The notes under the pieces: generated by a model
Databases searched by the model: none
The model's input: only the letters and a program-made list of their open reading frames with translations
What the model was told of the DNA's origin: nothing
Source of the DNA: Desulfosoma sp.
GTDB lineage: Bacteria; Desulfobacterota; Syntrophobacteria; Syntrophobacterales; DSM-9756
DNA: 64,000 nt
Assembly (NCBI GenBank): GCA_037481835.1
Contig: JBBFKW010000008.1
Location: 96,001-160,000, forward strand
Reading direction: 5' to 3'
Part shown: positions 58,681 through 64,000 of the stretch, piece after piece
How the letters are laid out: each line of letters begins with the position of its first letter
How positions within the stretch are numbered: position 1 is the first letter of the stretch
Position numbers and translations under genes: made by a program

Positions 58681-59643
58681 ATGGTCTTTCCCACTGCGGG
58701 GATTGAAGTGGCACCCTGGGTGCCGCCTTTGGTGGCTTTCGTGATTTCCTTTTTCACATCCATGGGGGGGGTTTCCGGGGCGTTCCTGCTCCTGCCCTTT
58801 CAAATGTCCGTCCTGGGCTACACGCATCCTTCGGTGAGCGCCACGAATCAGTTGTTCAACATCGTGGCCATTCCCAGCGGGGTGTACCGGTACTGGAAGG
58901 AAGGGCGGATGGTTTGGCCCCTGACGTGGGTGGTGGTCATCGGGACGCTGCCCGGAGTGCTCATCGGCGCCGTCGTCCGCGTGGCCTATCTTCCCAACCC
59001 CAAGAATTTCAAGCTCTTTGCCGCCGCCGTCCTGCTCTATATCGGCGTGAGGATGGTGCAGGATCTTCTGAAAAAAAACACCGGGGGCGCGTCGAAGGCC
59101 GATACGGAAAAGAGGTTTCAGGAAATGGTGCGCCGTCATCGGGCCATGGCTTCCCAGGCCGCCGGGGGAACCTCGCCCCAGGCCCTGCCGTCGGTCAAAG
59201 TGACCCATTTCAATACGCGGCGCCTCGGCTACACGTTCTATGAGGAATCCTACGACGTGCCCTTTTGGGGGATTTTCGCCCTGGCTTTCATCGTGGGTAT
59301 TGTGGGCGGCATTTACGGCATCGGCGGCGGCGCCATCATCGCTCCGTTTTTCGTGACTTTTTTCAAACTGCCCGTCTACACCGTGGCCGGAGCGGCCCTG
59401 ATGGGCACATTTGTCACGTCCGTGGCCGGAGTGGCCTTCTACCAGGCCTTGGCGCCTTTTTACCCCAACATGTCCGTGGCCCCGGATTGGCTTCTCGGGG
59501 TCCTTTTCGGCCTCGGCGGCATGGCCGGCATGTATCTCGGCGCCCGCTGCCAAAAATACGTCCCGGCGAGGGCCATCAAATGGATGCTGGCCGCCATCAT
59601 CGTCTTTACGGCCGTTAAATACATCGTCGGGTTTTTCTCTTAA
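58681..59643 (+). CDS. TauE/SafE (TSUP) family anion transporter
   Basis: SMGGVSGAFLLLP, GGIYGIGGGAIIAP, GMYLGAR. Confidence 0.88.
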   Translation: MVFPTAGIEVAPWVPPLVAFVISFFTSMGGVSGAFLLLPFQMSVLGYTHPSVSATNQLFNIVAIPSGVYRYWKEGRMVWPLTWVVVIGTLPGVLIGAVVRVAYLPNPKNFKLFAAAVLLYIGVRMVQDLLKKNTGGASKADTEKRFQEMVRRHRAMASQAAGGTSPQALPSVKVTHFNTRRLGYTFYEESYDVPFWGIFALAFIVGIVGGIYGIGGGAIIAPFFVTFFKLPVYTVAGAALMGTFVTSVAGVAFYQALAPFYPNMSVAPDWLLGVLFGLGGMAGMYLGARCQKYVPARAIKWMLAAIIVFTAVKYIVGFFS

Positions 59644-59687: not shown

Positions 59688-60122
59688 TCAGGATTTTACC
59701 TGCCGGGACACCATGTCTTCCTTTGCGGCCTGGACCATGGCGACGACAAACCGAGCGCCTTCCCGCGCCTCCCGGGCATCATCCAGACCGTATTCTTCCG
59801 TGGGGATGAAGTCGATGTCCCCGGAGAAGGCCAGTTCGCGTTCCTTGCGCAGCTTCTTGGAAATGCGCGCCGCCGCAGGAATCCGTGAGGCCACTTCGGG
59901 GCAGAAGCGATGGGCATGCTCCATGAGCAACCCGCCCACATCGTGATACTTGGGAGGTTCCACACCGGCAAAACGCAAAAGCCCTTTAAGAGCCAGTTCG
60001 ACGATTTCTTGCGCCTCCCGAACCACGTCCGAATAGGCTCCCTTGCCCATGAGAAGGTCCGGAATATCCAGGCGATCGATCGCCTTGCGCAGACAGCTTT
60101 CGGCGAGGGTGAGATTCGTCAT
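59688..60122 (-). CDS. HEPN domain protein (toxin of MNT-HEPN pair)
   Basis: AQEIVELALKG, PPKYHD, RELAFSGDIDFIPTEEY. Confidence 0.85.
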   Translation of the reverse strand: MTNLTLAESCLRKAIDRLDIPDLLMGKGAYSDVVREAQEIVELALKGLLRFAGVEPPKYHDVGGLLMEHAHRFCPEVASRIPAAARISKKLRKERELAFSGDIDFIPTEEYGLDDAREAREGARFVVAMVQAAKEDMVSRQVKS

Positions 60123-60124
60123 GG

Positions 60125-60634
60125 CTAGAGCTCAAAGATTTCGCCCGGCTTGTAGTCCGGTTTGAGGTCCCAGTACCACGCACTTCCCTGACGAATGCGC
60201 TTGGCTCCGAGCACCTTCAACCGTTCGGCAAGGCGTGTTAAAACTTTTCGGAAAAAGTCGTCGCGGTCGAACAAAATCCTTGCATCTTCCACCATGTCGA
60301 GAAAAAGGGGGGATCCCGCCAAAGCCTCGTCGGGCGTCTTGAAGACGACGGAAATGGGCATGGATTCCGGCTCCGCTGCCGAAATGCCCAAGGATCCCCA
60401 CAAGGCTTCCTCCACCGCATCGAATTCTTCCTGGCGTTTCATGCGTCCCCGGGGCAACCCCGTGGCGATGAGGAACACGTCCAAGTCGGATTCGCCGTGG
60501 TGGGTGCCTCGCGCCACCGATCCGTAGAGGACCAAGGAGACCAATCGATCCCCGTAATGGCGCAGGCACTGGGCCAACAGAGCCTCCGTCAACGCCTTTA
60601 TGGACTCTTGGTCCCGCCCGAGTTCTTTCGTCAT
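60125..60634 (-). CDS. Minimal nucleotidyltransferase (MNT antitoxin)
   Basis: LYGSVARG...SDLD motif; directly upstream of the HEPN gene. Confidence 0.88.
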   Translation of the reverse strand: MTKELGRDQESIKALTEALLAQCLRHYGDRLVSLVLYGSVARGTHHGESDLDVFLIATGLPRGRMKRQEEFDAVEEALWGSLGISAAEPESMPISVVFKTPDEALAGSPLFLDMVEDARILFDRDDFFRKVLTRLAERLKVLGAKRIRQGSAWYWDLKPDYKPGEIFEL

Positions 60635-60800
60635 GGTCCCCCTTTCATGAACCGGTGCCTGCGGTTTTTCCCATCCGGATGGCTTTCTTTTTCACCATAC
60701 TCAACCGGCGCCGAAAGGAAAGAGTCCGTCCATGGCTTTTGGGCTCATGGGGAGCCGTTGACATGGGGACGGGTTTTTTATACATGATATGCACGTTCGA

Positions 60801-60862
60801 AAGGCAATGAAGTCTGCCTGAACCGCCCCTGCCTCGCACGGCGTGGGGATGATGACTTCTCC
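60801..60862 (+). ncRNA. Fluoride riboswitch (crcB motif)
   Basis: GGCAATGAAGTCTGCC-TGAACCG-CCCC...GGGG-ATGATGACTTCTC: P1 GGCA/TGCC, pseudoknot GAAGTC/GACTTC, conserved AUG and UGAUG; TTGACA about 40 nt upstream. Confidence 0.9.
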
Positions 60863-60947
60863 ACGGCGGTGGCGGTTGCCCATGGACGGCAACCGTCCTT
60901 CCGACCTGCGGGCGGGGTTGCGGGCGTGCACTCGTTGTTTCCGGAAG

Positions 60948-60981
60948 AAACCCCATCCGCAGGGGCGGATGGGGTTTTTTT
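60948..60981 (+). terminator. Leader intrinsic terminator (probable riboswitch expression platform)
   Basis: CCCCATCCGC-AGGG-GCGGATGGGG-T7 just before the dynamin gene RBS. Confidence 0.85.
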
Positions 60982-61009
60982 GTGGGAACACCCTCAGGAG
61001 GACACGGCG

Positions 61010-62797
61010 ATGCTGGAAAGTTACCGACACATGCAGGCGCGGCTTCTCAACGTCTTGGAAGACATGAGGACCCTGAAAAGGGAAAACCTGGACGACGCTC
61101 TCGTGGGCAGGGTCGACGAATTGGCGGAAAAAATCCGCCAAAGCGCTTTTTACCTTGTGGTGCTCGGAGAATTCAAGCGGGGCAAGAGCACCCTGGTCAA
61201 CGCCATCCTCAAGGACAACCTTCTTCCGACGGCCGTGGTGCCGCTCACCTCCATCGTGACCATGATCCGCTACGGCCCCGATGAAGAAATCCTCGTTCGG
61301 TTCAAGGATGGACGAACGGAGTCCATCCATCGGGGCCGACTGGCCGACTACGTCACCGAAAAAGGCAACCCGGACAACGCCAAGGGCGTGGACCGCGTGG
61401 AAATCGCCTATCCGGCGGAAACCCTCCGCGGAGGCGTCCACCTCATCGACACGCCGGGGGTGGGATCCATTTTCGAAACCAACACGCAGGCCACTTACGA
61501 TTTTCTGCCCAAGGTGGATGCAGCCCTGTTCCTGTTCACCGCGGATCCGCCCATCAGCCAATCGGAACTGGCCTTTCTGCGGGACGTGCGCCAGTACGTC
61601 ACCAAGATCTTTTTCGTCCAAAACAAGATCGACGTCGTGGATCCCGAGGATCGGGAAGAGTCCCTGGAATTTTCCAAACAGGTGCTCAAGGACGTCATCG
61701 GCGACGGCGAGATCCGGATCTTGCCCCTGTCCGCCAAGCTCGCCCTGGAAGGCCGGCTCAAAGAAGATCCTGCGAAAATCTCCCAGAGCTACTTTCCCCG
61801 GCTGGAAGAGGTCCTCACGCGGTTTCTCACGCAGGAGAAGGGGCGGGTGCTGCTCCAGTCCGCCGTCCAAGCGGCGCGCAAGATCCTCAACGATGTGGAA
61901 TTTTCCGTCCAACTGGAACAGAAAGCCATCGAAATGCCGCTCCAGGACCTGGAACAGAGGATCGCCCTGTTTCAGAAAGAACTCCAAAAGATCCGACGAG
62001 ACCGCGAAGAAAACGGCTATTACTTCGAAGCTGAAATCAAGCGGATCATGGCCTGGTTGGACCGGGAACTGGAACGGCTCCAAAAGGACCATCTGCCGGA
62101 ACTCATGGAAGAGCTGCGCCGGGAGGGAGAAAAAAACCAACATCTGCCCGTGTCCCGATACGTGGAAAAGATGGAAAGCGTGCTCAACGAAGGCATCGTC
62201 CACACCTTCGACGACTGGATCGTCGCACAAGAGAAAGCCTTGAACGAAGAATTCGCCCGCGTCTCCCGACAATACTCGGACCGGACCAACCAGGTCATCG
62301 AACGCCTCATTCAGGCGTCGGCCAAGCTCTTTGACATCCCCTTCGAAACCATCCAAACGGACGAAGCCTTGCGGGCCGACAGCCGCTTTTATTATCTCCT
62401 TGGAGACCCACCCCGATTTTTTGACATCGCCGGTGCGGTGGATTTCTTCTCCCGAAAGCTCATGCCCAAGAGCTTCTCCCAGAAGAAGGTCTTGAGCGAC
62501 CTCATGAAGAAACTGCCGGAACGGATCGATGCCAACTGCGGACGCGTCCGCTCCGATTTCATGCGCCGTCTGCAGGAAAGTTTTCTCGCCTTCCGCTGGA
62601 ACCTGAACGCCAAGATCGACACCACGGCCCAAGGCATCCAGGACGCGTTGGACAAGGCCGTCGCCATGCAAAAGGCCGGGGCGGCCGAAAGGGACCGGAA
62701 GAAGGCCTTGCTCGGCGAAGAGATGCGCGGCATAGTGGCGATCAAAGGAGCCTTGAACCGGATCGCCGAGGACATCGCGTCAGCCGATGTGACATAA
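61010..62797 (+). CDS. Bacterial dynamin-like GTPase
   Basis: G1 GEFKRGKS, G2 VVPLTS, G3 DTPG, G4 NKID; long C-terminal helical stalk; AGGAGG RBS. Confidence 0.88.
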   Translation: MLESYRHMQARLLNVLEDMRTLKRENLDDALVGRVDELAEKIRQSAFYLVVLGEFKRGKSTLVNAILKDNLLPTAVVPLTSIVTMIRYGPDEEILVRFKDGRTESIHRGRLADYVTEKGNPDNAKGVDRVEIAYPAETLRGGVHLIDTPGVGSIFETNTQATYDFLPKVDAALFLFTADPPISQSELAFLRDVRQYVTKIFFVQNKIDVVDPEDREESLEFSKQVLKDVIGDGEIRILPLSAKLALEGRLKEDPAKISQSYFPRLEEVLTRFLTQEKGRVLLQSAVQAARKILNDVEFSVQLEQKAIEMPLQDLEQRIALFQKELQKIRRDREENGYYFEAEIKRIMAWLDRELERLQKDHLPELMEELRREGEKNQHLPVSRYVEKMESVLNEGIVHTFDDWIVAQEKALNEEFARVSRQYSDRTNQVIERLIQASAKLFDIPFETIQTDEALRADSRFYYLLGDPPRFFDIAGAVDFFSRKLMPKSFSQKKVLSDLMKKLPERIDANCGRVRSDFMRRLQESFLAFRWNLNAKIDTTAQGIQDALDKAVAMQKAGAAERDRKKALLGEEMRGIVAIKGALNRIAEDIASADVT

Positions 62798-62996
62798 CCC
62801 TAAAGAGGGACAGATCTCGCTGGGATGGGGGATAAGGGGATTTGTGCACGGGGTCGCTGCGCTCGACCCAACATCCTCGGGACATCGCTGACGCCCGGGG
62901 CCGGCCGTGAGGGTATCGCCCCGAAGGGGCACGGGATCCAAGCCCGGGCGAAGCCATAGGTTCTGGGATGGGAATCGTTGAAAACGGAGGTTTTTC

Positions 62997-64000
62997 ATGG
63001 CGATCAGTTTGGCTTTGATCATCGTCCTGGGTCTTTTTGCGGACTACGTCTTCAAGAAGCTGAAACTGCCGGGCCTTGTCGGCATGCTCTTGGTGGGCAT
63101 CCTGGTCGGTCCCTATGTTCTGGGCCTCATGCGCCCGGAAATGATGCAAGTTTCCGCCGACTTTCGAAAGATCGCCCTGATCGTCATCCTGCTTCGGGCG
63201 GGCTTTGAGCTTCACAGGGACACCCTCAACCGCGTGGGCCGCGCGGCCTTGACCATGAGCGCCGTGCCGGCCATGTTCGAAATCCTCGGGGTCATGCTGG
63301 TCGCTCCCAAGTGGTTGGGCATAAGCCTTCTGGAAGCCGCCATGCTCGGCGCCATCTTGGGGGCCGTCTCCCCCGCCGTCGTCGTGCCGCTCATGATCGA
63401 CTACATGGATCGGGGTCTGGGATTAAAAAAAGGCGTCCCCACCTTGATCTTGGGGGCCTCGTCCGTGGATGACGTTTTCGTCATCGTGCTTTTCACCATC
63501 TTCCTTGGCATGTACGGCGGCGGCTCGGTCAACGTCTGGGCCAAGCTGGCCGAAATTCCCATTTCCATCGTCCTCGGCATCCTCGTGGGGGCGATCCCAG
63601 GCTATCTTCTCTACAAACTGTTTACGACCTACGACTGGAAACCGCCCAAGAGGACCCTCGTCGTCCTGGGGGTTTCCATCGTGCTCACCTGGCTGGAATC
63701 GGCCGTGGAACATTGGGTTCCCGTGGCGAGCCTCCTGGGGGTCATGGCCATCGGGTTCGTCATTCTGGAAAAGGCGGAACCCATCGCCCACCTCATTTCC
63801 CAAAAGCTGAAAAAGCTTTGGGTCTTCGCCGAGTTGCTGCTGTTCGTCCTCGTCGGGGCCCAGGTGAACATCCACGTGGCGTGGAAGGCGGGCCTGGCGG
63901 GCACGGCCGTCATTTTTGTGGGCCTGATCTTCCGCAGCCTCGGCACCTGGGTGTCCCTGTGGGGAACGCCTCTGAACTGGAAGGAAAAAGTCTTCTGCGT
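62997..64000 (+). CDS. Cation:proton antiporter (NHA2/CPA2-like), runs off the window end
   Basis: MAISLALIIVLGL...LPGLVGML...IALIVILLRAG...AVSPAVVVP...ASSVDDVF; GGAGG RBS. Confidence 0.88.
   Translation, partial: MAISLALIIVLGLFADYVFKKLKLPGLVGMLLVGILVGPYVLGLMRPEMMQVSADFRKIALIVILLRAGFELHRDTLNRVGRAALTMSAVPAMFEILGVMLVAPKWLGISLLEAAMLGAILGAVSPAVVVPLMIDYMDRGLGLKKGVPTLILGASSVDDVFVIVLFTIFLGMYGGGSVNVWAKLAEIPISIVLGILVGAIPGYLLYKLFTTYDWKPPKRTLVVLGVSIVLTWLESAVEHWVPVASLLGVMAIGFVILEKAEPIAHLISQKLKKLWVFAELLLFVLVGAQVNIHVAWKAGLAGTAVIFVGLIFRSLGTWVSLWGTPLNWKEKVFC

Follow-up and report, generated by a model that had tools for sequence, protein, structure and literature searches.

A predicted fluoride riboswitch before a dynamin-like GTPase gene and an NHA2-like antiporter gene in Desulfosoma sp.

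Which genes does a bacterium place under fluoride control when no known fluoride exporter can be found in its genome? This question is raised by a locus of Desulfosoma sp. at the end of a stretch of 64,000 nucleotides (nt; positions 96001-160000 of contig JBBFKW010000008.1, hereafter the window) in a genome of 3.63 Mb that is 99.4% complete. Here a fluoride riboswitch directly precedes a gene for a dynamin-like GTPase (DLP), which is followed on the same strand by a gene for an NHA2-like antiporter of the cation/proton antiporter (CPA) superfamily. Fluoride resistance is currently explained by two exporter families and a few enzymes made in excess. We consider it quite probable that the riboswitch governs a two-gene unit of DLP and antiporter as a kinetic, relay-type ON switch, with the roles for the two proteins proposed below. 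Fluoride-dependent read-through and co-transcription of the two genes are what we infer from the sequence. Features of the locus are collected in Table 1.

Table 1. Features of the locus, in coordinates of the window
Feature	Position	Strand	Basis or remark
Candidate -35 box (TTGACA) of the leader promoter	60758-60763	+	inferred
Fluoride riboswitch aptamer (crcB motif, RF01734)	60794-60868	+	cmscan
Linker hairpin, 10 bp	60871-60897 (60871-60880 with 60888-60897)	+	every fold, aptamer free or locked
Predicted antiterminator element, G-rich	60905-60926	+	thermodynamic prediction
Intrinsic terminator, 17-bp stem, 4-nt loop, U-run	60944-60981 (60944-60960 with 60965-60981)	+	ViennaRNA folds
Shine-Dalgarno site (AGGAGG)	60996-61001	+	read from sequence, 8 nt before ATG
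Dynamin-like GTPase (DLP) gene, BDLP/IniA type, 595 aa	61010-62797 (ATG 61010)	+	Pfam, fold
REP-like palindromic repeat in the DLP-antiporter gap	62850-62869	+	short motif found 154 times in the genome, on both strands
NHA2-like CPA antiporter gene, 494 aa, last ~100 aa an uncharacterised tail domain	62997-64000, ending 481 bases past the window end	+	Pfam, PDB
TauE gene	58681-59643	+	
HEPN protein gene	59688-60122	-	Pfam HEPN, E 2e-15
Nucleotidyltransferase gene	60125-60634	-	NTP_transf_2; weak MntA and HalB NCBIfam rows

Scanning the window against Rfam 15 with cmscan returned three families, namely two tRNAs and the fluoride riboswitch RF01734. The riboswitch match covers the full model (positions 1-64 of 64) with 38.7 bits against a gathering score of 34 (E 3.5e-07), and it is the sole RF01734 match in the genome. 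The initial annotation, made from the letters alone, had described a crcB-type aptamer at 60801-60862, a second hairpin at 60871-60897 and a strong terminator at 60948-60981, directly before a dynamin-like GTPase gene and a same-strand NHA2-like antiporter gene. The covariance model confirms the aptamer within slightly wider limits, the hairpin and the terminator both form in predicted folds, and the two gene assignments agree with the profile and fold matches reported below.

Both the P1 and the P3 helix align to the RF01734 model. The pseudoknot, in a register (P1 loop with 3' tail) that we take to be that of the published structure, reads GAAGU/ACUUC where the consensus is GGAGU/ACUCC, so that both sides have changed and all 5/5 pairs are kept. 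Across loci we found the classes GAAGU/ACUUC, GGAGU/ACUCC, GAGGU/ACCUC and wobble variants, each with 5/5 pairs; these are regular-expression matches, whose 455 distinct strings are mostly noise and are not numbers of riboswitches. In an alignment of related DLP leaders the aptamer core is invariant in 6/6, and the flanks have diverged. The aptamer lies on the strand of the downstream gene and ends 142 nt before its ATG, with the terminator and the Shine-Dalgarno site in between. In sequence and predicted structure, then, the element has what is expected of a fluoride riboswitch.

Whether the DLP gene is the target of this switch was addressed by comparison with other genomes. The DLP was searched against 40 genomes of the same order, and the 29 loci obtained were scanned with Rfam. 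A riboswitch lies directly upstream, on the gene's strand, in 15 of the 20 closest DLP loci. Those without a direct switch are L016, L019, L021, L023 and L024; a whole-genome riboswitch search placed a switch on the same strand 2.4 kb upstream in L019 and 1.4 kb upstream in L021, the latter with a gene for a major facilitator superfamily (MFS) transporter between switch and DLP. None of the nine loci of more distant DLP paralogs had a switch in the Rfam scan, and these nine form a separate clade together with L023 and L024.

For a wider survey, an alignment of 16 switch-linked DLPs was searched against one genome per species, giving 80 loci that were scanned at the Rfam gathering threshold. 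Because the survey and the order sample share some genomes, their counts are not independent. A riboswitch on the + strand directly precedes the DLP gene in 67/80 survey loci. Four others (L087, L100, L122, L124) have one on the same strand 0.6-1.7 kb upstream, one (L091) has a divergent riboswitch only, and one (L060) has no upstream DNA. By their record names, the loci belong to Thermodesulfobacteriota, Nitrospirota, Bacillota (Fervidicola, Thermovenabulum, Desulfovirgula), an Atribacter, an actinomycete and others. A tree of 86 DLPs was also built; it takes in the window protein, 13 sequences of the order sample and 72 survey loci (in the other eight of the 80, no open frame passed the filter). 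The 11 switch-less paralogs are monophyletic in it (support 0.991), and outside their clade there are 62 sequences with a direct switch, 6 with a distal one, 5 without, 1 with a divergent one and 1 that is not assessable.

The composition of the units points in the same direction. In five of them (L037, L038, L040, L045, L046) the switch is followed by the DLP gene alone. Elsewhere the DLP shares a switch or a pair of divergent switches with CrcB and DUF190/CBS genes (L041, L044), with enolase (L042), or with universal stress protein (Usp) and Na/H exchanger genes (L039, L043, L044). The initial annotation had named a recent, unconserved insertion of the dynamin gene as a refuting case; an insertion of that kind does not agree with DLP relatives that have their own switch and in some cases the whole unit to themselves. 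These sequence comparisons argue that the DLP is a real target of the riboswitch rather than a passenger.

Three observations were made alongside the survey. In G015 (L036 5102-7706, +) the switch-linked DLP gene overlaps a downstream gene of the inositol monophosphatase family, a Mg-dependent phosphatase family, which is a possible further member of the fluoride regulon. At L089 4734-4911 (+), about 0.6 kb downstream of a switch-linked DLP gene, there is an M-box (magnesium) riboswitch with a score of 135 bits. TauE was considered as a linked transporter and dropped, as a relative adjoins the DLP in 2/80 loci only.

The second gene of the unit encodes a protein that matches Pfam Na_H_Exchanger with 165.2 bits against a cut-off of 26.2 (E 2.5e-48). 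Its best solved relative is NHA2/SLC9B2 (7b4l, E 2.1e-44 over residues 28-401; also 7p1i), ahead of NhaP (2.9e-13) and NapA (5.9e-10), and D159, an aspartate of the DD pair, is invariant. It falls far below the cut-offs of the NCBIfam K+/H+ antiporter equivalogs (57.6 vs 355). Unlike NHA2, this bacterial antiporter has a C-terminal domain of ~100 aa and is under fluoride riboswitch control in related genomes.

Antiporters of ~495 aa stand directly behind a fluoride riboswitch in eight genomes of families f1 and f2 (G002, G004, G005, G007, G008, G009, G015, G019), and G016 (family f3) has an antiporter of 75% identity with its own divergent riboswitch in front of it; the riboswitch-linked antiporters are 74-87% identical to that of the window. 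In G011 and G013 a shorter Na/H exchanger takes the antiporter's place behind the riboswitch. Judged by these arrangements, riboswitches target the antiporter itself in related genomes. Paired genes with a MutS_V domain were also seen directly behind fluoride riboswitches, in G001 and G007 (L142 941-4125 and L149 902-4107, both on the - strand), in keeping with the link between the crcB motif and "mutS" noted early on.

In the window, 200 nt separate the DLP gene from the antiporter gene, and a thioredoxin gene converges on the latter. A consensus scan found no terminator-like site on the + strand of this gap. The REP-like (repetitive extragenic palindrome) repeat that it contains has two copies in the corresponding gap of G003. 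Two members of the same genus, G003 and G001, have the gene order TauE, riboswitch, DLP, antiporter, and the gap between the last two is only 4 nt in G001. The leader in the window resembles the DLP leaders of G004, G007 and G015, unlike the antiporter leaders of G002 and G007, in which the terminator overlaps the 3' strand of the aptamer in the usual layout. From these comparisons, a DLP unit and an antiporter unit appear to have merged in this genus under a DLP-type switch, and the two genes would be co-transcribed.

The merger bears on the idea that the DLP is a passenger without any fluoride-related function, inserted between the riboswitch and the antiporter as the true target. In a third member of the genus, G002, an antiporter gene (84% identical) stands directly behind a riboswitch and no DLP was found by the order-wide search, and in f1 and f2 this antiporter is the commonest gene directly behind a fluoride riboswitch. 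However, an insertion in front of the antiporter does not account for the DLP type of the leader, nor did an Rfam scan of 62700-63100 (E up to 10) find any riboswitch remnant in the gap before the antiporter, the only row being a chance microRNA match (E 6.7). Together with the DLP's own switches in the order (15/20) and the survey (67/80), the units of DLP alone and the units shared with fluoride genes, this makes the passenger hypothesis very unlikely.

We looked for known exporters throughout the genome. PF02537 (CrcB/Fluc) has no match in it, and tblastn with the CrcB proteins of two relatives gave a best E of 0.01. The signatures of the fluoride-transporting CLC-F proteins are GNNLI/GMGLI, GREGT/V and GEVTP, according to the accessible part of a review (PMC11139923); the genome's single CLC protein has GREGP and none of these, and none occurs among 21 CLC loci from 15 of 21 related genomes. 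In the order sample, CrcB was found in 0/8 genomes of f1, 0/6 of f2 and 14/26 of f3, and a fluoride riboswitch in 8/8, 6/6 and 21/26, respectively. These negatives come from samples and searches and are no proof of absence. Within that scope, sequence searches find no CrcB/Fluc or CLC-F in the window's genome or its family. The initial annotation had proposed that a membrane-remodelling GTPase and not a canonical exporter is the first gene of the operon, and had listed a look for crcB or eriC just beyond the window among its checks; neither exporter was found in the operon, just past the window end or elsewhere in the genome.

Since no exporter was found, the DLP-antiporter unit is the genome's only recognisable fluoride response. 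More widely, whole families of thermophilic sulfate reducers have fluoride riboswitches and no known exporter that we could find, which makes the riboswitch-controlled NHA2-like antiporter with its tail domain a prime candidate for the missing function. The antiporter would counter the proton load and the build-up of fluoride, driven by the pH gradient, that follow when fluoride enters as HF.

How the switch might work was examined in the leader. The 226-nt leader has a folding energy of -121.4 kcal/mol (z = -5.45), with 0/200 shuffles as good. TTGACA precedes the aptamer in each of six aligned DLP leaders (TTGACT in G015), and GGAGG is likewise kept in the aligned leaders. The terminator on the + strand was not listed by a simple consensus scan because its U-run is absorbed into the stem. 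By a hairpin finder, its 5' arm begins 80 nt beyond the end of the Rfam match, a distance that is unusual: among 68 DLP leaders the terminator overlaps the aptamer end in 47, its 5' arm starts 21-60 nt beyond the aptamer in 3 and more than 60 nt beyond it in 4 (the window, L049, L051 and L055), and no terminator was found by the simple finder in 14. The remote terminator platform is thus a local peculiarity.

Folding suggests a route by which aptamer and terminator could communicate. With the aptamer free, the minimum-energy fold pairs the P3 5' strand and loop (60815-60841) with the G-rich element at 60905-60926 and the P3 3' strand with part of the pseudoknot strand (60842-60849 with 60858-60865), and the terminator forms. 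When the aptamer is withheld or locked and the transcript ends at the terminator loop, 60906-60918 pairs instead with the terminator 5' arm at 60950-60962. This antiterminator duplex has -24.1 kcal/mol, and 0/200 shuffled linkers do as well; in G001, L049 and L051 it is also better than chance (1, 1 and 2 of 200 shuffles).

We therefore propose, on thermodynamic prediction, a three-part relay. Transcription would be driven by a promoter with the conserved TTGACA box and would begin a few bases ahead of the aptamer. In the absence of fluoride, the 5' half of the aptamer would pair with the G-rich element, the terminator would form and transcription would stop. With the Mg-fluoride complex bound, the aptamer would retain its own strands and set the element free, which could then pair with the emerging 5' arm of the terminator and allow the polymerase to read through. 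At equilibrium the full terminator prevails, so such a relay would have to be kinetic. The antiterminator remains a predicted element, and the leader would be a kinetic ON switch with a relay, unlike the usual design in which the terminator overlaps the aptamer.

Several observations weigh against this picture of the locus. The aptamer score is just 4.7 bits above the cut-off, and one closing pair of P3 is G.A, flagged as non-canonical. The candidate promoter has a poor -10 box, and a consensus scan recognised no complete sigma-70 site. In the closest relative, G003, shuffles do as well as the antiterminator (131/200), and it does not stand out from them in G015, L055 and G007 either; the element's pairing with the aptamer exceeds chance by a modest margin (10/200 in the window, 29/200 in G001); and the terminator is predicted to form at equilibrium even with the aptamer locked. 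Beyond the leader, 7/80 survey loci have no riboswitch (L067, L081, L108, L112, L113, L126, L127), the 200-nt gap between the two genes leaves room for a second promoter, and the G002 arrangement of switch and antiporter implies that the DLP is dispensable for the antiporter. Finally, the membrane role proposed below for the DLP leans on analogy with proteins that are only 16-19% identical to it.

Some of these points would fit an aptamer that is a decaying or non-regulatory copy, with the distant terminator serving as a constitutive attenuator or with control lying elsewhere. The marginal score, the G.A pair, a terminator that does not overlap the aptamer as it does in most DLP leaders, and the lack of a significant antiterminator in G003 would all be expected then. 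We regard this as highly improbable, as the aptamer is the genome's sole fluoride aptamer, its core has stayed invariant across six genomes despite diverged flanks, its pseudoknot was kept through a two-sided change, and the layout with a remote terminator recurs in L049, L051 and L055. A functional switch with a remote platform is accordingly the reading we retain.

The first gene product was assigned by profile and by fold. It matches Pfam Dynamin_N with 85.9 bits against a cut-off of 27 (E 4.1e-24) and falls below the cut-off of the Pfam helical-domain model (25.3 vs 28.3). The G1, G3 and G4 motifs, GKS (58-60), DTPG (147-150) and NKID (N205/K206/D208), are invariant in 16/16 orthologs. In an AlphaFold model built from the 16 orthologs (pLDDT 76.1, pTM 0.64), helical neck and trunk bundles are folded back onto the G domain. 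Foldseek matched the model to the bacterial dynamin BDLP of Nostoc punctiforme (2j69, E 1.9e-21, TM 0.78 over 673 columns) and to mycobacterial IniA (6j72, E 1.4e-19, TM 0.67-0.70), and a profile search gave the same two proteins (2j68, E 5.7e-40; IniA, E 1.1e-22). No hydrophobic segment of transmembrane grade is present. A tip loop (residues 448-488) is rich in aromatic residues, with F460 and Y461 invariant, and is modelled at low confidence (pLDDT below 50). Two families were ruled out: DynA (NCBIfam NF052648, 74 bits vs a cut-off of 1600) and LeoA/HP0731 (NF041922, 24 bits vs 325). Whether GKS rather than GKT in the P-loop sets the switch-linked clade apart was also examined; it does so within the order and fails beyond it, with GKT in 17/67 direct loci.

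Comparison with characterised bacterial dynamins, limited to the accessible parts of the papers cited, shows both shared and differing features. BDLP (2j68, 2j69, 2w6d; PMC2862293) is the closest solved relative by profile and fold and shares the G domain and the helical neck and trunk. It is 19% identical, has a membrane paddle where the DLP has its tip loop, and has a role and regulation that are not linked to fluoride in that source. IniA (6j72/6j73; PMC6715688) is, like the DLP, a single-headed GTPase of BDLP fold and similar length. Its expression is induced by a chemical stress, as is predicted for the DLP, but the inducer is different (cell-wall drugs) and no riboswitch takes part. IniA is 16-17% identical to the DLP and shares the iniBAC operon with another DLP; the DLP here is a lone one. 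DynA of Bacillus subtilis, likewise a bacterial DLP, is said to shield the membrane from pore-forming antibiotics and phage (PMC8844932, PMC12998192), and differs from the 595-aa protein in being a two-headed fusion of ~1190 aa. The likeliest reading of the DLP's role, which we put forward tentatively and by analogy with IniA and DynA, is that of membrane maintenance: the protein, soluble and with an aromatic-rich tip, would assemble on the cytoplasmic membrane and maintain or remodel it under fluoride stress.

The main rival to this role holds that the DLP acts through its nucleotide pocket and not in membrane repair, either as a membrane-coating scaffold locked by fluoride or as a spare or decoy GTPase that buffers the inhibition of other GTPases. 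Metal fluorides (MgF3-, AlF4-) mimic the transition state of GTPases, and GDP-AlF4- stabilises dimers of the dynamin G domain. The nucleotide-binding motifs are invariant in the 16/16 sequences compared from the switch-linked clade, and of the 113 columns that do not vary in this clade, 72 do not vary in the switch-less paralogs either. Furthermore, other members of the fluoride regulon are extra copies of fluoride-inhibited enzymes, such as enolase, in the accessible part of PMC11139923. However, the residue differences between switch-linked and switch-less DLPs are conservative and none points to altered fluoride sensitivity, and one fluoride complex per protein would be insufficient against millimolar fluoride. 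We judge a nucleotide-pocket role to be distinctly unlikely and keep membrane maintenance as the working proposal.

When the 80 survey loci were searched by tblastn with the antiporter, the C-terminal ~100 residues proved to match stand-alone frames of ~94 aa (30-42% identity, E 1e-11 to 1e-19) that have strong ribosome-binding sites. Such a frame lies 71-113 nt downstream of the DLP stop codon in 10 loci, and the constancy of this spacer (L063-L094) is striking. An eleventh locus, L114, has a stand-alone copy on the same strand, and L063 has two copies. In six genomes (G016, G025, G029, G031, G032, G033) stand-alone copies stand behind a riboswitch of their own. The domain occurs in 28/41 genomes of the order sample, and all nine f1 genomes have it as a fusion with the antiporter. 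From this recurring adjacency, the sequences suggest that the DLP and the tail domain, free or fused, work together. Judged from gene order in other genomes, each of the three has links of its own to fluoride riboswitches: the clade of the DLP, that of the antiporter, and the tail-domain family.

Searches with the domain returned few named relatives. A profile run against 1.84 billion representative proteins gave 135 clusters at E up to 1e-3, most of them short; 13 were scanned with Pfam, where the nine longest (188-494 aa) include eight Na_H_Exchanger fusions or fragments and the other five had no match. The domain itself belongs to no Pfam family (best E 0.039, in 2/27 members), matches no NCBIfam family and has no PDB sequence match at E up to 1. 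In the ESM Atlas the fused tail gave nothing usable, and a stand-alone member gave unnamed clusters of ~95 aa only. Its model (pLDDT 86.9) has a helix followed by a small beta-barrel, for which Foldseek found no significant neighbour; the best, at E 0.09, were domain I of elongation factor P (EF-P) and other small beta-barrels. The modelled fold is best described as a small SH3-like barrel, with no family assigned beyond that. Four stand-alone proteins (P0006, P0141, P0144, P0145) are annotated "solute carrier family 9B (sodium/hydrogen exchanger)" and contain the soluble tail domain only; the name was probably carried over from fused antiporters.

A bolder reading combines these elements. Antiporter, SH3-like tail domain and DLP could form a fluoride-tolerance system independent of the known exporters, in lineages that have the switch and neither Fluc nor CLC-F. 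The tail would couple the DLP to the transporter at the membrane, and the antiporter would collapse the pH gradient that traps fluoride, or move fluoride itself. We hold this to be a rather doubtful extension of the two-gene unit described above.

Targets of the fluoride riboswitch named in the accessible part of PMC11139923 are exporters, Na+/H+ antiporters (the second most common class), pyrophosphatase, enolase, HAD phosphatases, formate hydrogen lyase and chorismate mutase; no GTPase or dynamin class is among them there. The report of the crcB motif (Weinberg 2010, PMC2864571), in its accessible part, names mutS, K+ or Cl- transport and formate hydrogen lyase, and four of its supplementary files contain neither "dynamin" nor "GTPase". 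A literature search whose scope did not extend to the primary gene list of Baker 2012 or to Stockbridge 2012 found no paper that links fluoride or the fluoride riboswitch to dynamin. The locus shares with canonical fluoride-riboswitch operons the RF01734 aptamer, its place in a 5' leader on the gene's strand, the terminator-based ON logic (predicted here) and an Na+/H+ antiporter as target. It differs in having a DLP as first gene, no exporter found in operon or genome, and a terminator 80 nt beyond the aptamer. What this locus adds is a genome and family in which no exporter was found, a merged DLP-antiporter operon and a remote platform of the predicted relay type.

For most bacterial dynamins the physiological role is unclear; a widespread DLP clade in the fluoride regulon would provide them with a definite inducing signal that is simple to apply, and it suggests that fluoride stress has a membrane component. 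The leader would be a naturally occurring fluoride switch whose expression platform is remote and of the relay type. Carriers of the DLP include cultured-looking strains (Desulfacinum hydrothermale DSM 13146, at locus L048, and Fervidicola ferrireducens Y170), and a record of Desulfosoma caldarium belongs to the cluster of the antiporter, so that these proposals should be open to experimental tests.

DNA nearly identical to 60700-63200 was detected in hot springs metagenome runs of one study (shares 0.91 and 0.69), with two possible source samples set aside. Geothermal water commonly contains much fluoride, a setting in which a fluoride regulon would make sense.

Upstream of the leader, the HEPN and nucleotidyltransferase genes likely form a HEPN/MNT toxin-antitoxin pair. 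The pair lies between TauE and the riboswitch and looks like an insertion, because TauE is directly upstream of the riboswitch in G003 and G001. Beyond the window end (L002 5013-6857), two long frames overlap on opposite strands and both match Pfam, one to DUF3108 (-, E 1.1e-14) and the other to an alpha/beta hydrolase (+, E 1.6e-15).

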